Source: Nitrosotalea sp.
GTDB taxonomy: Archaea > Halobacteriota > Syntropharchaeia > Alkanophagales > Methanospirareceae
NCBI GenBank assembly: GCA_020725315.1
Contig: DYFG01000037.1
Span: 1-12,570, forward strand
Direction of reading: 5' to 3'
DNA length: 12,570 nt
Under the pieces are notes generated by a model. It saw nothing but the letters and a program-made list of their open reading frames with translations, was not told where the DNA came from and ran no database searches. Below, in pieces: positions 1 through 12,570 of the stretch. Each line of letters opens with the position of its first letter. Position 1 is the first letter of the stretch. A program made the translations under genes and the position numbers.

Positions 1-1
1 T

Positions 2-53
2 GAACGAAATTCAGAAAACAACATCTTTATAAACTTAAAGTGCGGAATATGGG
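2..53. repeat. Left arm of a perfect 52-bp inverted repeat whose partner is 12519..12570. Position 1 is unpaired only because the window ends, so the IR may extend outward.
   Basis: By-hand reverse complement of 12519..12570 is identical to 2..53 (gaacgaaattcagaaaacaacatctttataaacttaaagtgcggaatatggg). Position 54 versus the complement of 12518 is the first mismatch. Confidence 0.9.
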
Positions 54-580
54 CTGTAAGCGGAAATAGCATCTTCGTAGCTTCCCCTATCAAATGTTTT
101 CTTTGCATCTTCCGATAAAGAGATGCCGATCGCATTTTTACCTGCGATTATGCTCTTCTTCACATTATAAATGTTCTTTTCAATCGCTTTTACAAGCCCT
201 TCATCCTTAAGCCCTTCTGCACCGCTTCTTGCTTCTATGAATTTTCTCAATGATTCCTGGTATTTTCCAATCGATTTCTCATAATCTTTTACTTCGAATA
301 ATCTTGTTGCTTCAGTTGCGAGTCTCTGTGCGGTATCAAATAATCCAGGAGTTGTCTTTTTCCATTCCTCACGCTCCCCTATCTTGACTCTCAGTGTGGC
401 AATGTCTCTCTCCACTTCTTCCACCTTCTTCGGGTCTTTCAGCTTTGATCTTATTGCATTTGCTTCGGATTCGAGTCCTTCCGTGTTCAAAGAGTTTAGT
501 TCCCTCTCGAGTTGCTTTAATCGCTGGACCCTATTTTCATACTCTACAAGTTTCCGTTCTATGAGGGATAGGTCTTTCAT
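35..580 (-). CDS. 181-aa charged coiled-coil protein of unknown function. Its last six codons (PYSAL-stop) lie inside the left IR.
   Basis: Intact ORF. Its ATG overlaps the TGA of the upstream gene as ATGA at 577-580. E/K/R-rich heptad-like sequence and TAA stop at 35-37. Confidence 0.6.
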   Translation of the reverse strand: MKDLSLIERKLVEYENRVQRLKQLERELNSLNTEGLESEANAIRSKLKDPKKVEEVERDIATLRVKIGEREEWKKTTPGLFDTAQRLATEATRLFEVKDYEKSIGKYQESLRKFIEARSGAEGLKDEGLVKAIEKNIYNVKKSIIAGKNAIGISLSEDAKKTFDRGSYEDAISAYSPYSAL

Positions 581-1608
581 TTCAGCATCTCCTCCAGTTT
601 ATCATCTCCTTTATAGCCTTCCTCTTTCAATTGCTCGTATCTGGTCTTTAACACCAGATATTCCTTCCGCTTCTTCTTATTTCTTCTAACTACAAATCCA
701 GCGCCTGTAAAGGCAGCAATGAGCACCACTCCACCGATATAAATGTAGTTATTATTAATTGTTGGAGCAAAGTCAAAGCTGTTTAGCACACCGTCGCCAT
801 CTATATCAATAGCAATGCTCATAGCTTGATTTACAAGCTCTTTTGCTATCTCATATTTCCCGGTGCTTAAAGCCTGTTCTGCCTGAAAAAGTAAAGCCTC
901 CGCTTTAGCCATGTTAAAGCCTTTGGCTTTCTCTGATTCTATTGTTTTCTTTGCCTCTCTTATACCATCCTCGGCAAAAACTTTAAGATTGTCGAAAAAG
1001 TAAACATTATTATCACCAGATCCTGCTGCTATATAAGAGCCATCAGAAGAGACAGAGACACTTTTAACATCTTTACCTGTCTTATAGCTCCAAATAAGCT
1101 TTCCTTCTCTGTTGAAGAAGTAAGTATTGTTATCCCTAGACCCAGCTGCTATATAAGAGCCATCAGAAGAGACTGAGACACCCCAAACCTGATCGCCTGT
1201 CTCATAGCTCCAAATAAGCTTTCCCTCTCTGTTGAAGTAGTAAACATTGTAATCCATAGACCCAGCTGCTATATAAGAGCCATCAGAAGAGACTGAGACA
1301 CTACAAACCGGATAGCCTGTCTTATAGCCCCAAATAAGCTTTCCCTCTCTGTTGAAGAAGTAAACTTTAGTATCATCAGACCCAGCTGCTATATAAGAGC
1401 CATCAGAAGAGACTGAGACACTATTAACCAAACCACCTGTCTCATAGCTCCATAGAAGCCCGTAGTCTTCTTGTGTTCCCTCTGCCTGAGCTACGCTAAT
1501 TAAAAGAAATAAGATTGTAATTATCCCAATTGTCTTCGTCACTTCTTCAGCTTTTTCAGCTAACCTGAGCCACTCCCCTGATGCTCTTTTATTCATTCCA
1601 ATACTCAT
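577..1608 (-). CDS. Membrane-anchored beta-propeller repeat protein (YVTN/PQQ/WD40-like 40-aa blades). It has an N-terminal signal anchor, a C-terminal transmembrane helix and a basic tail.
   Basis: Repeated motif SVSVSSDGSYIAAGSxDxxVYFFNREGKLIWSYxTG occurs four times. Hydrophobic segments are TIGIITILFLLISVAQA (N-terminal) and IGGVVLIAAFTGAGFVV followed by RRNKKKRK (C-terminal). Alternative ATG at 1596. Confidence 0.8.
   Translation of the reverse strand: MSIGMNKRASGEWLRLAEKAEEVTKTIGIITILFLLISVAQAEGTQEDYGLLWSYETGGLVNSVSVSSDGSYIAAGSDDTKVYFFNREGKLIWGYKTGYPVCSVSVSSDGSYIAAGSMDYNVYYFNREGKLIWSYETGDQVWGVSVSSDGSYIAAGSRDNNTYFFNREGKLIWSYKTGKDVKSVSVSSDGSYIAAGSGDNNVYFFDNLKVFAEDGIREAKKTIESEKAKGFNMAKAEALLFQAEQALSTGKYEIAKELVNQAMSIAIDIDGDGVLNSFDFAPTINNNYIYIGGVVLIAAFTGAGFVVRRNKKKRKEYLVLKTRYEQLKEEGYKGDDKLEEMLK
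985..1460. repeat. About four tandem copies of a 120-bp coding repeat (1021-1140, 1141-1260, 1261-1380, 1381-~1460, plus a partial copy upstream), each encoding one propeller blade.
   Basis: The 60-nt sequence lines align in perfect 120-nt register. The block cccagctgctatataagagccatcagaagagactgagaca recurs almost unchanged, as does ctt/ctcatagctccaaataagctttccctctctgttgaag. Confidence 0.9.
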
Positions 1609-1724
1609 ACATTCTTACCATTTCTTACGTAGTTGCAACTTTATTCTCTCCGATCCGAGACTTGCTTAAAGTATCTCATTTGCTTTTTCCTCCCAATATC
1701 TTGATCATTGTTTCGTGCTGTTCC

Positions 1725-1940
1725 TCATGACATAATATCCATGGATGCACGTTCAAGTTTAACCCTATCTCCAACCTTCACACACAACACATCCCTCACC
1801 GTTTTATTAATCCTTATCACATCCATGTCATCATTGACACCCAGCGGTTGAACTGTTACAATCTGCTTCTGCTCATCAAACACGATTCTCGCGTGGTCAA
1901 TCTTTCGCAGACCCAATCGTTCCATTATTACAGGATGCAC
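1725..1940 (-). CDS. Small 71-aa hypothetical protein with a GTG start (or ATG at 1925). It could be an AbrB/SpoVT-like swapped-hairpin DNA binder, but this is very tentative.
   Basis: ORF only. The KVGDRVKLE-type segment is weakly reminiscent of looped-hinge-helix proteins. It overlaps ORF 1897..2100 by 44 nt in another frame. Confidence 0.3.
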   Translation of the reverse strand: MHPVIMERLGLRKIDHARIVFDEQKQIVTVQPLGVNDDMDVIRINKTVRDVLCVKVGDRVKLERASMDIMS

Positions 1941-2100
1941 AACCGCGTCTCTCGAACCTTTCTTGACTTATTCGACCATCTCCGCAATCCTGAGTATCCT
2001 CCTCGAAGGTATGAAATTCGTAGAGCCGCAATAGGTATTTGTAATTCTCTTCAATTGATTTCACCCATTCCAGATGCTGATGGATGAGTTCGCTATCCAT
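1897..2100 (-). CDS. Small 67-aa hypothetical protein lying 8 nt downstream of the SPFH gene. It may be spurious or a remnant.
   Basis: ORF with a GGAG 13 nt upstream of the ATG. It contains three Cys (CGDG...CASC) and overlaps the 1725..1940 ORF. Confidence 0.25.
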   Translation of the reverse strand: MDSELIHQHLEWVKSIEENYKYLLRLYEFHTFEEDTQDCGDGRISQERFERRGCASCNNGTIGSAKD

Positions 2101-2108
2101 AGATAGGA

Positions 2109-3761
2109 TTACTCCTTGCGCCCAATCGCCGTTCCGCAGTTCGTGCAGAACCTCGTGCCAACTGGCAGTTCAGCATTACATCCTGGGCAGATGATAACCT
2201 TCTTCACTTCATAAACAGGTGGGACTGGTTGTGCACCCCCGCCTATTACCACAGGTTGTCCATATCCTCCGCCCGTGACAACCGTTGTGCCTCCGGGTTC
2301 TGCATCCCGCGCCCTCGTAGCAGCCGTAGTCCCCATCTGTTCAAGTGCCTTCGCAGCCATACGTTCTATTCTATCCCCGCCTTTATCCGCAATCTCCTGT
2401 GTAGTCCGTGCAAGTGCCTCCTTATCGCCAAGCCTATCCTCGTATATCTTCATAATCTCCTCAGCGCTCTTCGATTTGTATCTCTCTTTGAACGCCTCGG
2501 CAATTGCAACGCTGTCCCTTGCACCGAGCGCGAGTATCTGCTCGTCTGTAAGACCAGTAGCTAATTTCATTCTCGCCAATTCGCTGAGATATTCTGCCTG
2601 TTTACCCTCTACCATAGATATGAGCGCCTCATCGGTAGCGGCTGAGCGTGCCTTAACCCTCTCTTCTTCTAACTCCGCCTCTATCTTCATCCTCTCAAGC
2701 CCAAGTTCTTGATAGCCAGCCACGTCCTCACGTTTTACTGCTTTCATCGCTTTTAGCAGTTCGATGCCTTCTCTTGCAGCTCTTGCATCCTCCTCGTCTT
2801 CTTTCCGCTCTTTCTCAAGTTCATGTAAATGCCGTTCCATATCCATCTCCAGTTCGTGCCGCTGTTCAACTCGTCTCAGCATCAACCTCCGTGCAAATGC
2901 TCTATCCTCTTGATTATCCTCAAATATCCGTTTGAGCTCGTTCATCTCGTTCTCTCTTATGACTTTATCCCTGTCAAGCTCGTGCAAAAACTTCTCAAGG
3001 TCTTCTACATTCTTGAATTCGTCCATCTTATCATCGGTGAGCCGTGCACGCATCCGCTTCTTGAGTTCGAGTCGCTCATCCTCAAGACCCTCTACTCGCT
3101 CCTCTAAGCCAAGCTTCGCGCCTTCCTTCCCAATATAAGCCCTTTTTTCAATCAAATCCTTCCAATAACTTTCGTCGTAGTCAAAATACGGCATATACAC
3201 GAGTTTAAGACAAACTCTGCTCAGTGTTGTATTCAGTAGATGTTCAAAGTCCTGTTCAAGCTCTTTTTTCAAGTCTAAATTACCGTACAAATCCTCGAAC
3301 GAATACTGCTTGACCTTTGATTGCAGTAAATTCAGCATTTCATTCCTCAGCATAGCTTCAACGTCTGCCGTCGTTATGTGCTCCCTGCCTTTCATAAGAT
3401 TATTGAAGAATAGTATCGGATCCTCAACATTCACAACTATCTTCCCCTTCACACCCGCATCAAAGTTCTCTTTTGTTCTCAGTCCTCCAATGTTGAAGTA
3501 GAGCCCAACATCTGAGTCGTCCACTAATATTACGGTCGCCTTTTCCGCAAGGTTCAGCGTCTTTATCACCTGGATAAGCCCGCCAACGGTGTATGTTCCG
3601 GGTGGTAACTCTCCGAAGAATCTCCCTCCTTGCAAGAATATCGCCTTCGTTCCTGATGTAACGGTTATTTTCTTGCTAAAAAACCCTTTTATGTCACTGA
3701 CCTCGATTCGCTCTGCAAAGTCGTTCGGGTTCCTTTGCCATACGCTTATTTTACCAAACAT
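2109..3761 (-). CDS. 550-aa SPFH (band-7/stomatin/flotillin-like) domain protein. After the SPFH domain it has a long E/R/A-rich coiled coil, a Gly-rich linker and a C-terminal CxxC...CxxC zinc ribbon.
   Basis: The N-terminal ~200 aa follow the SPFH pattern (ITVTSGTKAIFLQGGRFFGELPPGTYTV ... TKENFDAGVKGKIVVNVEDPILFF ... MLRNEMLNLLQSKV ... LSRVCLKLVYM). The C-terminus is CPGCNAELPVGTRFCTNCG. A strong SD AGGAGGTGA lies 7 nt before the ATG, and the stop is TAA. Confidence 0.7.
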   Translation of the reverse strand: MFGKISVWQRNPNDFAERIEVSDIKGFFSKKITVTSGTKAIFLQGGRFFGELPPGTYTVGGLIQVIKTLNLAEKATVILVDDSDVGLYFNIGGLRTKENFDAGVKGKIVVNVEDPILFFNNLMKGREHITTADVEAMLRNEMLNLLQSKVKQYSFEDLYGNLDLKKELEQDFEHLLNTTLSRVCLKLVYMPYFDYDESYWKDLIEKRAYIGKEGAKLGLEERVEGLEDERLELKKRMRARLTDDKMDEFKNVEDLEKFLHELDRDKVIRENEMNELKRIFEDNQEDRAFARRLMLRRVEQRHELEMDMERHLHELEKERKEDEEDARAAREGIELLKAMKAVKREDVAGYQELGLERMKIEAELEEERVKARSAATDEALISMVEGKQAEYLSELARMKLATGLTDEQILALGARDSVAIAEAFKERYKSKSAEEIMKIYEDRLGDKEALARTTQEIADKGGDRIERMAAKALEQMGTTAATRARDAEPGGTTVVTGGGYGQPVVIGGGAQPVPPVYEVKKVIICPGCNAELPVGTRFCTNCGTAIGRKE

Positions 3762-3782
3762 CTTTCTATCACCTCCTATTTT

Positions 3783-4271
3783 TCACCTCACAACCCGCAT
3801 TTTAAACTTAACAGCTTGAATACCTGCTCGGCACCATTTCATGTACTCAAGGCATGCTTTTCGATTAGCTTTCCTCTCCCTACTGAACTCTATTTGCAGA
3901 GACTTGTTGAAATGTTCAAACGCAGTTTTGAGAATGGATAGCGCCTCCTTGTAGCCAGAAAGCGCATCGTCCAGGTCACCAACCGCATCAGACGCCCATG
4001 CAAGATAATAAGGATAGAATGCCTTATCTGTATGTGCAAGACCAATCCTGCTATGATACGAAGCAGTGTAACCTTGTGCTTTGGCGATTTCCGCAGCTTC
4101 CATCCTGAACGAACTGGCTGAGAGCATGTATCTTGCTCTTTCTGTTTTATCCTGCTCCGCCATCTGATGCCAGAGTGAAACCGCCTTGTCATACAACTCG
4201 ATTACAACCTCTTTATTCCGTTCTTTAAGTGCTCTTTCCTTGTATTCTATTGCCTGTTCCCACAGTTCCAT
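3783..4271 (-). CDS. 162-aa all-helical (TPR-like?) protein of unknown function.
   Basis: Intact ORF 3 nt downstream of the 4275..5477 stop. A GAGGTGA SD is embedded in the upstream gene end, and the stop is TGA. Confidence 0.55.
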   Translation of the reverse strand: MELWEQAIEYKERALKERNKEVVIELYDKAVSLWHQMAEQDKTERARYMLSASSFRMEAAEIAKAQGYTASYHSRIGLAHTDKAFYPYYLAWASDAVGDLDDALSGYKEALSILKTAFEHFNKSLQIEFSRERKANRKACLEYMKWCRAGIQAVKFKMRVVR

Positions 4272-4274
4272 TTT

Positions 4275-5477
4275 TCACCTCACCAGCAACAAAACATCCT
4301 TCGCACCCTCTTCCGGTGTTATGATCTCCCCTTTTCCATCTTCCACCATCTCCCTGAATGCACCCACCACTACCTTCCTCGGCACCTGATATTTCGATGC
4401 AACCTTATCAGCCCTGAACTGTAGCACGCCCTCTTTTACATCTTCTTCGAGCTCACTAATCATATTCTCAATCTCCTCCTCCATCGAAACAGGCACGAAC
4501 CACTCCGCAAACTGCTTCGTCTTCTTATCGCTCTCGTTGAAAAACACCTTTCTTTCGCTTAAATCCACGAGATAAACGCTTTTGTTCACGTTCCTGATAT
4601 TTTCTACCTTATCAATAATCCATTCGGTCCATCCTGTAGGTGATACCAGAACCAAAGCACCAAACGAATTCTTCTCACCTTCACCTGCTTGTATAAACCC
4701 GGTAATCATATCAGAGACTTCTTTTCCTATTTTTCGGTAAATAAAACATTCTTCATCTTCTGGAACGATGAATTTAATGTTGAACCCAACAGAAACGCGT
4801 TCACGAATTACCCCTTTTGTAATCTTCGCAGTTATTCCCTCTTTCTCAATATCAATCTTCCAAGCCTCTTTATCGTATTCCTCTTCCGTTAGTGGATTGA
4901 CCACGCCTTGACTCGCGAGACGCGATTGCAATAGGAAGAAATAATTCAACCGCACGAACTCAACATCCTCCTGCGTGAGCACGCTATCCCGTATCTTCTC
5001 TGCATCTTCTGCCAGAACGTTATCAATCGCATTTTTCGTCTTTTCCAACTCCTCCATCTGCTCCTTCACATTTTCGGATAACTGCGCGATGGTCTGTAAT
5101 TCATTACTCATGCGTTCTCGCTGCTCAGCTTCAAATTCCTTTATTCTGCTTTCAAGCTTCTGTTCACGCTCTAAAATCGCTTGCTGCTGCATCGCAATTT
5201 CTTCTTCGCGTTTCTTCATCTGAAGCTTCTTCTGCTTCCATTCATTCACCATAGCTGCGACGACGCTTTTCACCTCCTCAACGCCTTCGCCAATCAATTC
5301 CTTTATGGCTTGTCGGTATCTAATATCCTCAACGTGTTCCCGGTATTCATCTATGGACTCTCTCTGTGATTTTATGTTCTCCTCAAGAGCTCTTGTCTCT
5401 TCTAAAAGTCGTTGCGCCTCTCCAAGCACATCACCCATCGTGCCGGTATCTTTGAAAAACAAGGGCTGCTTCTCCAT
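4275..5477 (-). CDS. 400-aa protein with an N-terminal ~200-aa charged coiled coil and a C-terminal ~200-aa globular domain of unknown function. No Walker A motif is present.
   Basis: Intact ORF with an ATG at 5477 five nt after the upstream TAG and a TGA stop. The composition is coiled-coil (EEIAMQQQAILEREQKLESRIKEFEAEQRER) followed by a mixed alpha/beta-looking C-terminus. Confidence 0.6.
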   Translation of the reverse strand: MEKQPLFFKDTGTMGDVLGEAQRLLEETRALEENIKSQRESIDEYREHVEDIRYRQAIKELIGEGVEEVKSVVAAMVNEWKQKKLQMKKREEEIAMQQQAILEREQKLESRIKEFEAEQRERMSNELQTIAQLSENVKEQMEELEKTKNAIDNVLAEDAEKIRDSVLTQEDVEFVRLNYFFLLQSRLASQGVVNPLTEEEYDKEAWKIDIEKEGITAKITKGVIRERVSVGFNIKFIVPEDEECFIYRKIGKEVSDMITGFIQAGEGEKNSFGALVLVSPTGWTEWIIDKVENIRNVNKSVYLVDLSERKVFFNESDKKTKQFAEWFVPVSMEEEIENMISELEEDVKEGVLQFRADKVASKYQVPRKVVVGAFREMVEDGKGEIITPEEGAKDVLLLVR

Positions 5478-5482
5478 GCGGA

Positions 5483-5986
5483 CTACACCCCCTGCGCCAT
5501 ATTCTTTATGAGGAAGTCCGTTCTGTATAGGAAGATGTTCCTCAAGTTGTCTAAGCTCCGCTTCACTGTTCTTACCTGTAGAATAATGTCCGAAGTCTCG
5601 CCCTTGAGCACATGGTCATACACGAGGTCTGCCGCCTTCGTTATTATTTCTAACTCGCTTAATAACTCTTTATCAAATTCCACCATTCTATCCACTACCT
5701 CATCCGATACCTTATCCTGCTTAAATAAGGGCGATAGTCAAAAAGAGGCATTATCTATTTCGTTTCTGAACAGGTCTAAGGTATTGAGAATGTCTTTGAT
5801 ATGCTCTACTACCTCCCTCCTTCCGTCCTTATAAGCTAAATCGCTAACCTCTTTCAACGTATTATACGACTTTTTCAATTCCCTTGAAAGTTTGTCTCTT
5901 ACCGCACGGTCTGAATTGAGTCTGTTCTTCTTTACTCGATAGTCATAACCCGGTATGATCTTCTCCATCAATTTTCCCATATCCAT
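5483..5986 (-). pseudogene. Possible single ~166-codon gene interrupted by an in-frame TGA at 5738..5740. As annotated it is two small ORFs, 5738..5986 (82 aa) and 5483..5695 (70 aa, GTG start).
   Basis: Both ORFs are in the same minus-strand frame (5986-5695=291=3x97). The 14 codons between the TGA and the next start are open (LSPLFKQDKVSDEV). A GGGGTGA SD lies 5 nt before the ATG at 5986. Confidence 0.4.
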
Positions 5987-6080
5987 ATAATCACCCCTTT
6001 ACCAATTTACTGTTAAGTATATCTTCGAGTTACATTCCTTATAATGGTTGTTACATATAATCAGAATATTAATCAGCATA

Positions 6081-7334
6081 TTACAAAAAATCCGTAACGA
6101 CCCTATCCTTGCTCACTTTATCACCCCAATTCACCAGGCCATTGTACAGAAAAAGTGCTAAGGTCAGGATAAAGATGATGACCGTGGGTATGAAGGAGAA
6201 GGAGATTCCAAACAGGTAAACAAAGATCGACGTACTTACCGGCCCTATCAGGAATCCTGAGGTCTTTGCGAATTCAAAGATACCGGAATAAGCGCCATAT
6301 CTTTCCCGCGGCACAATATCCGTTACCCGTGCCTCTATTAACGGTTCGGCAAAGGTAGTGCCGAGGGATATAATAAATATCGTTGCTAAGAGACCTGGAA
6401 GTAACTTCAGAAATCCTAAGGGTATGATAAAGAGGGTGGAAATTAAGAACCCGAGATAGATCATTTTACTTTTTCCAATTCTATCACCCAACTTACCAAG
6501 CGGTATCTGGAAGAGCAAGAAAGGAGCGGCAGAGATACCTAACCAGAGTCCGATTACGAATGGGTTATAACCCAGGTTGCGAAGAAATAAGGGACCGAAT
6601 ACCCATTTGGCTGAATACCAGAAAAAGAGTGATACGGTGCAGAGAGCCAGAACTTTAAGTTCTCGCTGCTGATTGAACTCCCTGAGTAATATTAACAGAT
6701 CATCCTTACCTATTCCGTTTCTCGTGCTGTTTCTATTACTATTACTATCACGGTTATTATCTTTTAATTTGAGGACTAACAGCAACGATGCGAGGAGCAG
6801 AAGAGCCGAGAAGATGTAAGGAGTTCTTATTTCGAATCGCTCTGCCAATAAGCCGCCAATTAAGGGTCCTATAAATATACCTGCATTTGCAAAGGTACCG
6901 TAAAAAGATCTGAACTCGCCCCTCCTTCCGATAGGCGATATATCCTTAATAACAGCCTCACTGATAACCCAGGCCGGGGCCATGGCGATACCAAATGCTA
7001 TTTGCAACCCTATTAATGCATAAAGGCTGGTATTCCTGAAGAATGCGAAAAGCACGCCCGAGATGAGGAGAAACGAAACGATTAACAATCGTTTCTTTCC
7101 GATTTTATCAGAAAGAACACCAACTGGAAGACTGAATGCCAGCCCGGCAAACGAAGCGAGCGCGGCAATGAGCCCAACCAATTCCGCTTTTCCGAGGAAT
7201 TGCTTCAGGTAGAGTGGATGGACGGTGATGAAAGCGCCTATGAATATGCTGAAAAGGAAGAAGATCGTGGAAAATAAGAGTAACTGAGTGCGGGCTTGGG
7301 CTTTCGGCTGTCGTTGTAATCTCGGTTTGAACAT
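6081..7334 (-). CDS. Major facilitator superfamily (MFS) transporter, 417 aa, about 12 transmembrane helices.
   Basis: Two motif-A signatures (GVLSDKIGKKRLLIVS and LGKLGDRIGKSKMIYLGF) sit in loops 2-3 and 8-9. Hydrophobic helices are present throughout, with a hydrophilic central loop (KDNNRDSNSNRNSTRN). The stop is TAA. Confidence 0.9.
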   Translation of the reverse strand: MFKPRLQRQPKAQARTQLLLFSTIFFLFSIFIGAFITVHPLYLKQFLGKAELVGLIAALASFAGLAFSLPVGVLSDKIGKKRLLIVSFLLISGVLFAFFRNTSLYALIGLQIAFGIAMAPAWVISEAVIKDISPIGRRGEFRSFYGTFANAGIFIGPLIGGLLAERFEIRTPYIFSALLLLASLLLVLKLKDNNRDSNSNRNSTRNGIGKDDLLILLREFNQQRELKVLALCTVSLFFWYSAKWVFGPLFLRNLGYNPFVIGLWLGISAAPFLLFQIPLGKLGDRIGKSKMIYLGFLISTLFIIPLGFLKLLPGLLATIFIISLGTTFAEPLIEARVTDIVPRERYGAYSGIFEFAKTSGFLIGPVSTSIFVYLFGISFSFIPTVIIFILTLALFLYNGLVNWGDKVSKDRVVTDFL

Positions 7335-7421
7335 AGATATAAAACACCTTCTCAGCTAAAAAGAATATTATCTGTACGAATGACCCGGTAAAAAATCCAG
7401 GTCCAAATACAAACTATAACT
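7335..7421. promoter_or_regulatory. 87-bp AT-rich divergent intergenic region between the MFS gene (-) and the phosphatase gene (+). It is a likely bidirectional promoter region. No SD precedes the phosphatase ATG, so the transcript may be leaderless.
   Basis: The region is AT-rich (gatataaaac, aaaaagaatattatc, caaactataact), and both flanking genes start at its edges. Confidence 0.35.
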
Positions 7422-8336
7422 ATGCATGCGGAAGTTGAGGAGTGGGTGAAGAAGGCGTTTGAGGCGCGTGTGGAGGAGTTCTCAGCACTGATTAATGAAG
7501 CAAGGGAGGTGTTAAAGCGCGAGAACGGGTTACGAGCAGGAAGCGGATTGGTTCGCATAGCTCCCCAGGCAGTGAGGAAGGTTGCCGTTATAGGCGATAT
7601 ACACGGTGATATCGAAAGCCTTGTTCACGTATTGAGGGATACGGATGTGGAAACCGCTGATAGAATTATCTTTCTTGGTGATTATGGCGACAGGAGCGAG
7701 GAAAGTGTTGAAGTTTACTATCTCCTTTTGACGCTCAAGGCATTAGCGGGGATTGGGGAAAAATTAATTCTGCTAAGAGGTAATCATGAAGGCCCGCCGG
7801 ACATGCCGGTCATGCCCCATGACCTCCTGTTATTCTTTACGAGCAAATATGGAGCTCGGGGGAGGGAGTTGTACAACCGCATAAGAGAACTTTGGGAGTA
7901 TTTACCGTATGCTGTAGTGGTCACCGGCAGCTATCTGATGGTGCACGGTGGGGTGTCTGCCACGGTGACTTCTAGTGAGGATATTGCGTATGCACGTGAA
8001 ACGCATCCCTCGTCGAGCACCTTTGAGGAGATACTCTGGAGCGACCCGATTGAGGGCAAGGGCTATTTTAGTTCGCTGCGGGGTGCGGGCAGGATGTTTG
8101 GTGAGGATATCACCGATGCGGTTTTTCGTGCGGTAGGCGTGAAGACGTTGATAAGAAGCCATGAGCCGTGCGAGGGTGTTGACGTGCGGCAGAGAGGAAA
8201 GATTCTAACCCTATTTTCACGGAAGGGGGCGCCCTATTTCAACAAACGAGCCGCATATTTGGTGTTGGATGAAACTATACTTCGAGACGCAAAAGATGCC
8301 GGGGAGCTGGCGAGAAATGCTGCACGGATATGGTAA
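7422..8336 (+). CDS. PPP-family serine/threonine protein phosphatase (calcineurin-like metallophosphoesterase; PP1-arch/PrpA-like).
   Basis: Canonical PPP motifs GDIHGD, GDYGDRS (GDxxDRG) and GNHE occur in the correct order and spacing. The stop is TAA. Confidence 0.9.
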   Translation: MHAEVEEWVKKAFEARVEEFSALINEAREVLKRENGLRAGSGLVRIAPQAVRKVAVIGDIHGDIESLVHVLRDTDVETADRIIFLGDYGDRSEESVEVYYLLLTLKALAGIGEKLILLRGNHEGPPDMPVMPHDLLLFFTSKYGARGRELYNRIRELWEYLPYAVVVTGSYLMVHGGVSATVTSSEDIAYARETHPSSSTFEEILWSDPIEGKGYFSSLRGAGRMFGEDITDAVFRAVGVKTLIRSHEPCEGVDVRQRGKILTLFSRKGAPYFNKRAAYLVLDETILRDAKDAGELARNAARIW

Positions 8337-8548
8337 AGAAGAAAGCATAAAGGAGAAAGAAGGTCGTTGAGTGAGATGCTTGCTTCAGTACTTTCGAAAC
8401 CTATGAAGATCTGAGTAAGATAAAAAGCCCGTTAGATTTAAAAACGAAGAATTCGTATATTGAAAATGAGGTTGAAGGAGATGAAGGTCAGCAGTCAGCT
8501 GAAAGGAGGTATATACGAAGTAAGTTTCGGATATCATCCCAATTTGGA

Positions 8549-9085
8549 ATGATATACGACATTAATGTCGGATATACCGAAGTTAGGCGACATTTTGCTT
8601 GGCGGTGCGAGAAAATGAACGAAAAAACAATAAACAAAGATAAAAGGTATCTGCTTATATTGCCATGCTCCAAACGTAAGAAGAGAATCTCTGAGGCACG
8701 CGCCATAGAATTATATGATGGCCCATTTTATAGGATGGTTAGAAAGAGCGGGTTGATGAACTTAAATATTTTAATTCTATCGGCAAAATACGGCTTAATT
8801 AATGCTTGTGACAATATTTCTTCTTATGACCAAGTAATGAGTGCTCAGAGGGCGAAAGAGTTAGCGGAAGGAGTTAAACTTAAATTAGAGAAAGTACTAG
8901 AAAATAACGGTTACGACGAGATATTCATAAATCTTGGTAAAACATACACGCTTGCGTTAGAAAACAGCAACAAAATTCTTAACGATTACGATGTTTACTG
9001 GGCAAGAGGGCAAATCGGAGAAAGATTAAATCAACTTAAAAGATGGTTGCGTAGAATCGAGTTGGAAAATGGTGGTAAATTATGA
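8549..9085 (+). CDS. 178-aa hypothetical protein, first gene of the helicase-nuclease operon. The true start may be the internal ATG (MNEKTINK). Its function is unknown.
   Basis: Its TGA stop overlaps the helicase ATG as ATGA at 9082-9085. Conserved-looking segments are KRYLLILPCSKRK, ELYDGPFYRMV and ILILSAKYGLINA. GC is low. Confidence 0.6.
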   Translation: MIYDINVGYTEVRRHFAWRCEKMNEKTINKDKRYLLILPCSKRKKRISEARAIELYDGPFYRMVRKSGLMNLNILILSAKYGLINACDNISSYDQVMSAQRAKELAEGVKLKLEKVLENNGYDEIFINLGKTYTLALENSNKILNDYDVYWARGQIGERLNQLKRWLRRIELENGGKL

Positions 9086-9645
9086 TTACTTGGAATGACT
9101 TTCAAAATACTGTTTTTACTCAACTAGGTAGAGACATTAGAAGACAAAGTAACCCTGACCAAAACGCTGCTATACAAGCCCCTCCAAATCACTCTTTATT
9201 CATAGTCTCTGGGCCAGGCAGTGGAAAGACAACAGTAATTACCCTGAGGGTTCTGAAATTAATTTTTGTGGACGACATAAATCCCTTAAATATTTTAGTT
9301 ACAACTTTTACACGAAAGGCTGCCGCTGAACTGAGATCAAGGGTTCTTGGATGGGGAGACCAACTGAGACGTGCATTTATAAATAATTCATCTTACTATC
9401 CCGTTAGGAATCAACTACAAAGATTAGATTTCAACAGAATAATTACGGGGACTTTGGACAGTATCTCGGAGGAAAAATTAGGAGAGTACCGTGCTCCAGG
9501 CACTCCACCACCACCAGTAGTCATTGAGGATTTTGTCTCAAATGCATTGATGATAAGGGTTGGGCTTTTTGGGCACGGTAGACACAATAATCCGGTTCTC
9601 AGAGATTATATCATCCAATTAAGTGGATCTGCCTTTGGTGGTTAA
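9082..9645 (+). CDS. UvrD-like helicase N-terminal fragment (Q motif, Walker A, motif Ia/Ib).
   Basis: GPGSGKTT and TFTRKAAAELR are present. The ORF ends with TAA at 9643-9645, 23 nt after the next fragment starts in the +1 frame. Confidence 0.8.
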   Translation: MITWNDFQNTVFTQLGRDIRRQSNPDQNAAIQAPPNHSLFIVSGPGSGKTTVITLRVLKLIFVDDINPLNILVTTFTRKAAAELRSRVLGWGDQLRRAFINNSSYYPVRNQLQRLDFNRIITGTLDSISEEKLGEYRAPGTPPPPVVIEDFVSNALMIRVGLFGHGRHNNPVLRDYIIQLSGSAFGG

Positions 9646-10174
9646 CGTTGGTGAGATGAGTGCTACGCTAAGGGAGATAAAAGATAGGTTCTTTCATGAC
9701 AAAGTAAATGTTAATCGCTTCAGGAGTCTGAGTAACCACCCAGGTATTGGGGTGGCGTGCGATGCTATAGATGATTATAACCAAGAATTACAAAGTCGCC
9801 TTCTTTTCGATTTTGCGAGACTGGAGATAGAATTCCTTGAACGGCTTCGAGCAGGCGTGTTGAATAATTTTCTTCAAAATATAAGATTCATTTTGGTTGA
9901 CGAATATCAGGACACAAACTTACTTCAAGAACAAATCTATTTTGAGCTTGCGAGAGCAGCATTACAAAATGGAGGCAGCATCACAGTTGTTGGTGATGAT
10001 GACCAATCTCTCTATCGTTTTCGTGGTGCAACAGTCGATCTTTTTCAAGCATTTCCAAATAGAGTCAATAATCACTTGGTGATAAGCCCTGTGACTGTGT
10101 ATCTCTCTCAAAACTACCGCTCTACGCCGAATATTGTACGTTTTGTAAATGATTTTGTTACCTTAGATACGTGA
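9623..10174 (+). CDS. UvrD-like helicase middle fragment (motifs II, III, IV), GTG start.
   Basis: DEYQDT, GDDDQSLYRFRGA and QNYRS are present. It ends at an in-frame TGA, and the frame reopens immediately after. Confidence 0.8.
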   Translation: MDLPLVVNVGEMSATLREIKDRFFHDKVNVNRFRSLSNHPGIGVACDAIDDYNQELQSRLLFDFARLEIEFLERLRAGVLNNFLQNIRFILVDEYQDTNLLQEQIYFELARAALQNGGSITVVGDDDQSLYRFRGATVDLFQAFPNRVNNHLVISPVTVYLSQNYRSTPNIVRFVNDFVTLDT

Positions 10175-10189
10175 TTTCAAAACGCCAGA

Positions 10190-11461
10190 GTGACAGGTAA
10201 ACCCCGGATTAGAGCATCACGCCCAACAACACCCCAACGTTATATTAATTATCCAGTTTTAGGAATGTTCCGGGACGATGTTGGCACCCTTGCCCACGAG
10301 CTAGCGCAATTTGTTCATAGAGTAGTTCATAGGGGGGGATTTCAAATAAGGCATCAAGGTAACCGTTATACAATACGAATTAGTCCTCAAGGTGGCTCAC
10401 CAACGGACGTTGCTATGTTGTGCAGTTCACCACGAGAGTTGGCTTCTAATGGTAATCCAAGACTTCCTTTACTTTTGGATGATGAGTTGAGGCGCATGAG
10501 CCCACCAATTCAAGTTTTTAATCCAAGAGGTCAAAATTTAGAGAGAATCCCAGAAGTTCAAAGATTATGCGGTTTAATTTTGGAGTGTATAGATCCTGAT
10601 AGCAACATCCAAAATAGCATAGTGACATTGCCTCAAGCAGCGGTAACTATCTTTAATGCTTGGCGTGCCGAGGCTACGAACCTTGTAAATAGTAATCCAT
10701 CTCCCACCGCTCCAATCAATCTTAGACAATTCGTCAATGCGTGGCAGCGCAGAACCCCCTTACGTAGAAGAATGCAGACCAGAGAGGAAGTACCATTGCT
10801 AGATCTGGTTTACAAGTTGGTCACATGGATACCTCCTATGCAAAATGATATAGAAGGTTTAGTGTATCTAGAGGCAATAACTCGGGCAATCAGTCAAAGT
10901 GCATTGTTTGGTAACTTTGGTGCTGAAATAATCTTTGACCCTAGTAATCCTAATAGTAGGTTAGAGCAAGCTTCAATAAGAGAAGCACTTTGGAATATAT
11001 TTATGCCACTTGCAACTGGTGCAATCGAAATTGATGAAGACCTTCTTGAAACTTTACCAAGCGACAGAATAAACATCATGTCAATTCATCAGGCAAAAGG
11101 ATTAGAGTTTCCTCTGGTGATAGTGGATGTAGGAAGTGACTTTAGATATGATCATTGGAAGCAAGCATTTAAACGCTTTCCACGGCTAAACAATATAGGA
11201 AGAGTGGATGGTGTAAAAAGCCTGAATATGGAAGATGAATTAAGAAAGCACTCCCCCTTAGGACAATCTTCAAGATCAAGTTTAGATAGAGCATTCGATG
11301 ATTTAATAAGACATTATTTTGTAGCCTTTAGTAGGGCCCAAGATGTCCTATTATTAGTTGGTTTAAACTCTGTAAGAAGTGGTATTCCCAACATCGCCAC
11401 AGGATGGGATAGAAATGGAAGCTGGTATTGGAGGAGGTTAACCAATTTGGTGCATATTTAG
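10190..11461 (+). CDS. UvrD-like helicase C-terminal fragment (2B-domain region, motifs V and VI), GTG start, in the same frame as 9623..10174.
   Basis: IHQAKGLEFPLVIV and YVAFSRAQDVLLLVG are present. The TAG stop at 11459-11461 abuts the SD of the next gene. Confidence 0.8.
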   Translation: MTGKPRIRASRPTTPQRYINYPVLGMFRDDVGTLAHELAQFVHRVVHRGGFQIRHQGNRYTIRISPQGGSPTDVAMLCSSPRELASNGNPRLPLLLDDELRRMSPPIQVFNPRGQNLERIPEVQRLCGLILECIDPDSNIQNSIVTLPQAAVTIFNAWRAEATNLVNSNPSPTAPINLRQFVNAWQRRTPLRRRMQTREEVPLLDLVYKLVTWIPPMQNDIEGLVYLEAITRAISQSALFGNFGAEIIFDPSNPNSRLEQASIREALWNIFMPLATGAIEIDEDLLETLPSDRINIMSIHQAKGLEFPLVIVDVGSDFRYDHWKQAFKRFPRLNNIGRVDGVKSLNMEDELRKHSPLGQSSRSSLDRAFDDLIRHYFVAFSRAQDVLLLVGLNSVRSGIPNIATGWDRNGSWYWRRLTNLVHI

Positions 11462-11465
11462 GAGG
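11461..11465 (+). promoter_or_regulatory. Shine-Dalgarno GGAGG for the nuclease gene, 7 nt upstream of ATG 11473.
   Basis: ttaGGAGGaaaaaatATG. Confidence 0.6.
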
Positions 11466-11472
11466 AAAAAAT

Positions 11473-12537
11473 ATGTCATTGTCTGTTAGACCGAGACCAT
11501 ACATAATCCCTGAGTATAGTTTAACTGGCGACCTACTAGCATATCTTACCTGCGGGTTGCAATATAGATACCACAATAAGGGCTCTCTCCCTCCCTCTAC
11601 ACCTGTTCAGCTATGGTTTGGAGAATTCATACACAGTGTTATGGAAGAAGCATATCGTAGATGGCAAGATGAAACCTCGGAACAGCGTTTTCCATGGAAT
11701 TGGGATCCTGACGTACGCGATATCGAACTTGAAGTTGAAAGGAGACTAGAGGCAAGAGGTCTGTATGCTCCATTCGGTCTTTTTTGCGCATACGGATTGA
11801 CCCAAAGCCGACAATGCACCTGCTATACTAGAAATCCACCTCGTCAACATCAACTTATTGCGAGTCAGAGAACTGAGTCAGCAATCAATACTTGGGGACA
11901 ACACCTATTTCCACTTATTGCAGAAGCCGAAGTGAGACTTAAGGGTAGCAGAGACATGCCAAACTATCAACCCAATATTAGCAGGTCTAACTATTACGGA
12001 GTTACAGGCGTTATAGACGTAATAAGCTCTGTTAACCTTATCAATGCGCCACCGGGAAATTTAATTCTTCACTATATTCATCAGCATACGGAAGTGAGCC
12101 AAATAATAAATAATCTCGCTTCACAAGAGTATGAAATTATCATTGATTATAAAGGTATGAGAAGACCTGCTACTAATAGCCGTCTCTGGCAACATCATGA
12201 ATGGCAGATACTTACCTATACTTGGCTTAGGTCTCAACAACCGCAATCACGACCTATAGCTGCAGGAATAATTTTCTATCTTAATGAGTTGGCTTTATCC
12301 GGGGAAGATGTGGAAGAATTAAGAGATGATGTCGCGAGCAGTCTTACGGATGTGATGCCATCCGGACAGGACTTAAATAGAATACAAAACTGGCGGCGAG
12401 GAACGCCACCGCCCGTCCTCACACGTCCGTTTAGGGAGCAAAGGTCAATTAGAATTATACCAGTCAATGATACCGCTGTGCAAAATAGCCTTCAAAGATT
12501 TGATAATGTTGTATCTACCCCATATTCCGCACTTTAA
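11473..12537 (+). CDS. RecB-family PD-(D/E)xK nuclease (Cas4/AddB-like PDDEXK_1 fold), 354 aa from the SD-preceded ATG. The upstream-extended ORF 11428.. has no SD. The last five codons lie in the right IR.
   Basis: It has the N-terminal Cas4/RecB-like motif SLTGDLLAYLTCGLQYRY, motif II GVIDVIS, motif III IIIDYKG (hhhDYK) and the downstream QxxxY (QILTY). The stop is TAA at 12535-12537. Confidence 0.7.
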   Translation: MSLSVRPRPYIIPEYSLTGDLLAYLTCGLQYRYHNKGSLPPSTPVQLWFGEFIHSVMEEAYRRWQDETSEQRFPWNWDPDVRDIELEVERRLEARGLYAPFGLFCAYGLTQSRQCTCYTRNPPRQHQLIASQRTESAINTWGQHLFPLIAEAEVRLKGSRDMPNYQPNISRSNYYGVTGVIDVISSVNLINAPPGNLILHYIHQHTEVSQIINNLASQEYEIIIDYKGMRRPATNSRLWQHHEWQILTYTWLRSQQPQSRPIAAGIIFYLNELALSGEDVEELRDDVASSLTDVMPSGQDLNRIQNWRRGTPPPVLTRPFREQRSIRIIPVNDTAVQNSLQRFDNVVSTPYSAL

Positions 12538-12570
12538 GTTTATAAAGATGTTGTTTTCTGAATTTCGTTC
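12519..12570. repeat. Right arm of the perfect 52-bp inverted repeat. It contains the last five codons and the TAA stop of CDS 11473..12537, followed by a T-rich tract.
   Basis: Exact reverse-complement identity to 2..53. It runs to the last base of the window. Confidence 0.9.

Follow-up and report, generated by a model that had tools for sequence, protein, structure and literature searches.

The 12,570-nucleotide stretch of archaeal DNA analysed here (contig DYFG01000037.1; the window, meaning this whole stretch) begins and ends with a gene that reads outward into one arm of a perfect inverted repeat. The two arms, 2-53 and 12519-12570, are 52 nt each and proved 100% complementary when compared within the window, in agreement with the first-pass annotation, which had described a 52-bp perfect inverted repeat as bracketing the window. 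Their innermost 14 nt, CCCATATTCCGCAC, were found at just these two sites in the window, with 0.05 occurrences expected by chance. We consider it highly probable that the repeat is the IRR (transposase-distal) end of an IS1634-family insertion sequence (IS), two inverted copies of which flank the window. The features at the two ends were read as follows.

1..53, plus strand: last 53 nt (IRR side) of the left IS copy; the element ends at 53, with its 14-nt terminal inverted repeat (TIR) at 40-53
12519..12570, minus strand: last 52 nt (IRR side) of the right IS copy; terminus at 12519, with the 14-nt TIR at 12519-12532
35..580, minus strand: coiled-coil protein of 181 aa with a weak MIT-like match, apparently truncated by the left IS copy; native part 54-580
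11473..12537, plus strand: Cas4-like PD-(D/E)XK nuclease of 354 aa, truncated by the right IS copy; native part 11473-12518

An exact-protein look-up of both end genes found the source contig, JGI 3300029892|Ga0246235_101006 (12,619 nt), which differs from the window by 3 mismatches over the whole window and exceeds it by 22 nt on the left and 27 nt on the right. The earlier suspicion that the repeat might be longer was borne out by this contig, in which the left arm measures 75 nt and the right arm 79 nt, each reaching the end of the contig, and the two are identical wherever both are readable. One window protein is recorded for an NCBI contig with the exact length of the window, 12,570 nt, and the window is probably the whole contig of a separate assembly that likewise stopped 52-53 nt into the repeat. 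Furthermore, six other contigs terminate within the repeat, just past one or the other end gene, namely two from Logan SRR13164376, one from Logan SRR5011273, two from JGI 3300029893, and one from the NCBI metagenome-assembled genome (MAG) GCA_020724985.1. Given that every assembler stops at the repeat, it must be a multi-copy repeat longer than assemblers can bridge, and the contig ends show that short-read assemblers break inside the IS.

The identity of the IS was obtained from copies in other contexts. When metagenomes were scanned with the outermost stretch known of the repeat, one locus was returned, QZGF01001191.1 (L009); there, unrelated DNA stands before the same 79 nt, which lead into a transposase gene encoded on the other strand. 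The element is complete at positions 155-2338 of this locus, with a length of 2,184 bp and perfect 14-nt TIRs, CCCATATTCCGCAC. Window positions 1-53 are 100% identical to 2286-2338 of L009 on the same strand, and window positions 12519-12570 are 100% identical to 2338-2287 on the opposite strand. The first open reading frame (ORF) of the element, an N-terminal fragment, matches NF033559 (IS1634-family transposase) with E=7e-64 and 216.5 bits (cut-off 100), and DUF4277 was also matched in this transposase, whose gene is split over three frames and carries two 45-nt palindromic inserts. An intact relative of 1,996 bp with the same TIR was found at two loci (L027 672-2667 and L030 2-1997); its 552-aa transposase scores 382.9 bits against NF033559 over positions 3-482 of 483 (cut-off 100). 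The base directly before CCCATATT varies among copies, all four bases being seen, and the inner edge of the repeat at 53/12519 is therefore the exact terminus of the IS.

IS1634 is an IS4-related family whose members are 1500-2000 bp long, have ends of the form C-----YT, insert at AT-rich targets, and are reported to occur preferentially in Euryarchaeota (De Palmenaer et al. 2008, PMC2266710). AT-rich target-site duplications of 5-6 bp are expected of the family. The element resembles this family in several respects. Its transposase scores far above the cut-off of the curated model, and the 1,996-bp length of the intact relative falls within the family range; the L009 type is 2,184 bp long because of its internal inserts. 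The TIR CCCATATTCCGCAC has C at position 1 and TT at positions 7-8, so that the termini CCCATATT fit the C-----YT consensus, and AT-rich (ATATAT-like) flanks adjoin the IS copies in L010, L027, L030, and L032. On the other hand, the 2,184-bp variant of this population departs from the family in its two 45-nt palindromic inserts and the frameshifts in its transposase gene, and the copies examined show no 5-6-bp target duplication, none being found at the two loci that are readable on both sides (L009 and L027/L029). The missing duplication counts against the reading of the window ends as IS insertions and is weighed with similar points below.

Two more copies of the IS or its relatives were recovered. 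Contig Ga0246235_101257 (L032), from the metagenome of the window, holds the IRL side of the IS in an unrelated context, 99.7% identical to L009 over 1,317 nt and with the same 321-aa first ORF. It was tried as a neighbouring region of the window and rejected, as it has no homology to the housekeeping flanks of relatives. At 7480-8101 in L032, the IRL end follows an IS200/IS605-type Y1 transposase gene at a distance of 36 nt downstream, suggesting an IS-rich neighbourhood. The 45-nt unit is present in two copies at 1467-1694 of L009, each with two short palindromes, GGGGCTCTGCCCC and AAACCCTGTAAGGGTTT, and L032 ends at 9404, a few bases inside the first copy of the unit. The unit may be a dispersed small palindromic repeat. 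A genome scan for the IS end returned one locus, in a Candidatus Syntrophoarchaeum MAG (L010 120-242), where 133 nt of a related copy are visible, with 86% identity, and the copy ends 35 nt from a tRNA-Pro(TGG) gene. A mechanical ORF running into this copy ends in PYSAL, as do both end genes of the window. As for the host, proteins at least 90% identical to the phosphoesterase of the window are labelled Methanophagales, and we infer an ANME-1 / Syntrophoarchaeum-type archaeon.

Of the two end genes, the minus-strand ORF at 35-580 ends in ...AYSPYSAL* and the plus-strand ORF at 11473-12537 in ...VSTPYSAL*, both reading outward into the arms in the same frame, so the earlier claim that they share a PYSAL-TAA C-terminus within the repeat is correct. 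At both junctions, the IS gives the third base of the junction codon and then CCA TAT TCC GCA CTT TAA, that is, PYSAL and a stop; in the left gene, this IS-derived part is 35-53 (the last base of a Ser codon plus PYSAL-stop). Two of the three frames entering the IS end stop within 6-9 codons, and the chance of the same frame at both junctions is about 1 in 3. Since the IS has cut both genes short and its end provides the PYSAL-stop, the shared C-terminal tail is, judged from the sequence, a by-product of insertion and not a designed feature, and the common frame is a coincidence. It is the usual pattern of gene truncation with an IS-encoded C-terminal tail, in which the native 3' end is swapped for a few codons of the IS terminus up to the first stop, and the window case shows nothing unusual. 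After the PYSAL stop come TTTATAAA and a T-rich tract, for which a role of the arms as terminators had been proposed. This proposal found no support, as the terminator scan called no terminator-like site on the arms and their transcripts fold no better than shuffled sequence (z = -1.1).

Truncation is clearest for the nuclease. It has a PDDEXK_1 domain match, with weak Cas4 matches, and its homologues are 394-404 aa long as against 354 aa here, each alignment covering just about 98% of the query. Homology stops at ...FDNVVS, where relatives go on with ...IENSVLSEM...CTACDFKTFCPNP...VP, and at the DNA level homology to uninterrupted relatives ends at 12512-12518. About 44 C-terminal residues are lost, together with a conserved CxxCxxxxxC cysteine cluster (CTACDFKTFC in relatives), and the nuclease is probably inactivated. 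The left gene, whose Pfam MIT match is under its cut-off, looks truncated as well: its homologues (196-294 aa) can be aligned up to ...DRGSYEDAISAYS (...EDAISAYS) and extend at least 15-110 residues beyond that point.

The genes between the two IS copies fall into two outer blocks and a conserved core.

577..6080, minus strand: left accessory block (Pfam matches), with no homology to the flanks of relatives
6143..8364, no single strand: conserved core, with an MFS transporter (6081-7334, minus) and a calcineurin-like phosphoesterase (7422-8336, plus)
8549..9085, plus strand: DUF6884 protein, weakly DpdC/YaaA-like (PF21818, E=1e-13); first gene of a DUF6884-UvrD-nuclease-DpdA module
9082..11461, plus strand: UvrD-family helicase pseudogene, frameshifted once near 9640 and interrupted by an in-frame TGA at 10172-10174

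The right-hand block is what remains of a compact, conserved archaeal four-gene module consisting of a DUF6884 protein, a UvrD helicase (745-797 aa), a PD-(D/E)XK nuclease, and DpdA. The module is intact in many archaeal contigs, with source names including Methanoperedens, Methanobacterium, Methanococcus, and Thermoplasmatales (for example L013 991-5947, L015 153-5456, L017 337-5684, and L018 1847-7341), and its counterpart here spans 8549-12518. In relatives it often adjoins genes of preQ0 synthesis or transport (QueC/QueD/QueE/FolE2 or a Vut_1 transporter). The dpdA gene follows the nuclease in every intact relative examined, the neighbour in L013 matching NF041059 with E=2e-125; it is not in the window, and the IS begins at 12519 in its place. 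Besides PF21818, the DUF6884 protein has a PADLOC PDC-M57A match and weak DpdC matches. For the helicase, tblastn with intact relatives of 787-793 aa showed a frame switch at residue ~185 and an alignment that crosses the stop. The same three ORFs are called at this locus in the JGI, Logan, and NCBI assemblies, so the lesions are not the sequencing error of one assembly. From its gene content, the module looks like a minimal Dpd-type system for 7-deazaguanine DNA modification or defence. The DUF6884-UvrD-PD-(D/E)XK-DpdA block of relatives resembles known clusters of this type, which combine dpdA with a helicase and a nuclease, whereas the module in the window is broken, with the helicase a pseudogene, the nuclease truncated, and dpdA cut away by the IS.

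The conserved core of 2.2 kb (6143-8364) is the sole part of the window common to the close relatives L024, L025, and L026, in which it is 93-95% identical at the nucleotide level and flanked by housekeeping genes. The homology begins and ends abruptly at 6143 and 8364 (adjoining 6081-6142 and 8365-8548), and no IS remnant or repeat was seen at these two breakpoints. On the left, homology breaks off within the 3' end of the MFS gene, so that the encoded C-terminal tail differs (417 aa vs 405 aa). Because the outer blocks are absent from the close relatives, both are accessory relative to them. The suggestion of an accessory or mobile island thus has some support in its accessory part, and the reported difference in GC content between the cargo blocks is only loosely true, as GC ranges over 0.36-0.51 with no sharp step.

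The left block holds a WD40-like beta-propeller protein, an ORF with CDC48_N only, an SPFH/Band-7 protein with a zinc ribbon, an MIT/TPR-like protein, a 400-aa protein, and two small ORFs; together with the end gene, the left side has two weakly MIT-like proteins, one of them also TPR-like. At 990-1459, tandem 120-nt DNA repeats with 83-86% mutual identity encode the 40-residue blades (…SVSVSSDGSYIAAGS…) of the WD40-like protein, which has a membrane anchor at its C-terminus. The genes at 1725-5477 comprise the SPFH/Band-7 protein, whose zinc ribbon is C-terminal, the MIT/TPR-like protein, the CDC48_N-only ORF (71 aa), and the 400-aa protein, for which no family match was found. Together with the MIT-like end gene at 35-580, they could form a membrane-remodelling or quality-control set.

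According to the reading we prefer, an IS of about 2.0-2.2 kb would lie at each side of the window, the two being mutually inverted, each with a transposase gene that is outside the window and directed inward. Each junction falls within a gene whose native 3' end is replaced by the first in-frame IS codons. The two junctions would stem not from movement of the whole 12.5 kb but from separate IS events in an accessory part of the chromosome, whether insertions or deletions or rearrangements mediated by the IS. Inverted IS copies were the example given in the first-pass annotation for its first option, the inner edges of a longer inverted duplication, which is upheld by the continuation of the repeat into an IS in L009. 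The same annotation had said that its view of the segment would fall if the repeat belonged to ordinary full-length IS copies unrelated to the end genes, and this is essentially what was found, though we infer the full length of the flanking copies. Several points, in addition to the missing target-site duplication, weigh against this reading. Just 75-79 nt of each flanking copy are visible in the source contig, and the homologues that indicate truncation of the left gene are only 43-47% identical, a weaker case than that of the nuclease. Furthermore, neither the missing 3' remnant of the nuclease nor the dpdA of the host was found, either through the DpdA neighbour of the closest relative or in four look-ups, all matches being from other organisms with intact modules, and tblastn of the C-termini of the nuclease and the left gene against L009, L032, and L010 gave nothing significant. 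Simple in-place insertion is thus unproven, and IS-mediated deletion or rearrangement is equally possible. The absence of a host dpdA or remnant among the best 120 DpdA matches hints that the right junction may be a deletion or rearrangement and not a clean insertion.

Two identical IRR ends of the same IS, inverted and facing inward around a segment of several genes, are also what a composite transposon would show, and we therefore considered whether the 12.5-kb segment and its two IS copies make up a functional element of the Tn5/Tn10 kind with the SPFH and helicase-nuclease genes as cargo. The absence of both outer blocks at the equivalent position in close relatives, where 6143-8364 alone is common, would agree with this, as would the failure to find the host dpdA and nuclease remnant, with a right junction that may not be a simple in-place insertion. 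However, two independent insertions give the inverted orientation half the time, and relatives have a locus amid housekeeping genes that matches the centre of the segment at 93-95% identity; unlike in Tn5 and Tn10, one locus of the cargo has a chromosomal place in relatives. The cargo is decaying, as seen in the helicase pseudogene and the truncated nuclease. The readable IS copies of this type, L009 and L032 (first 1,317 nt only), have a degenerate transposase gene that is split over three frames and contains palindromic inserts, and neither a second genomic context of the segment nor a clean empty site was found. A functional composite transposon is therefore unlikely in our judgement, and a genuine one that moves an SPFH/MIT block and a defence-type module between replicons of an ANME-1/Syntrophoarchaeum-type archaeon is equally so. 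Inverted repeats of about 2 kb can also support inversion of the intervening DNA by homologous recombination. Even so, a segment that flips between its repeats seems very unlikely here: no invertase or recombinase was found in the window ORFs scanned, the repeats are IS ends and not recombinase sites, and both arms are identical, so that the coding sequences at the junctions would be the same after inversion. The scan found no transposase or integrase domain either, in line with the earlier remark that no transposase, integrase, or invertase is encoded between the arms.

That two identical arms stand at the very ends of a contig raises the question of artefact, either a chimera joining unrelated pieces or an inverted repeat created by k-mers, and how long the arms are, 52-53 nt in the window and 75-79 nt in the JGI contig, does depend on where each assembler stopped. 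Nevertheless, independent assemblies agree with the window at 99.95-100% identity over 1-1166 and 5634-12550, the JGI contig follows it from end to end with only the 3 mismatches noted above, and both gene-IS junctions recur across several samples; 1166-5634 is supported by the window and the JGI contig only. The assembly chimera offered by the first-pass annotation thus gives way to this concordance, and we hold it to be less probable still than inversion. The same annotation had also proposed a non-autonomous element bounded by TIRs. A giant element of this kind with 52-bp TIRs, or a complete small linear extrachromosomal element or virus with inverted terminal repeats (ITRs), would account for a perfect inverted repeat at both contig ends, for the two divergently transcribed gene arms, and for the change of sign in GC skew near 7 kb. 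We regard it as the least likely reading of all, since the repeat extends past the window and enters the body of an IS with a transposase in L009, the same end adjoins unrelated DNA in L009 and L010, and relatives carry the central 2.2 kb on the chromosome. The window ORFs scanned included no genes for replication, packaging, or capsids, megablast against plasmids and phages gave no match, and a scan of viral contigs for the inverted repeat gave 0 matches. An ITR-bearing linear element, which would have the repeat at its physical ends and its own replication functions, was rejected, the repeat instead entering the IS body. The idea of a tRNA or att site was likewise rejected, no tRNA being found in the window.

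With the ends assigned to two IS1634-family copies that truncate two genes and break the assembly, the feature is an ordinary one. The copies explain the ends of the window contig and of at least six contigs from other assemblies of the population, and they call for caution, as perfect terminal inverted repeats on metagenomic contigs need not be the ITRs of linear elements. The finding is of little importance beyond such housekeeping. It is also a record of a Dpd-like module decaying through IS activity in an uncultured archaeal lineage that oxidises alkanes or methane.

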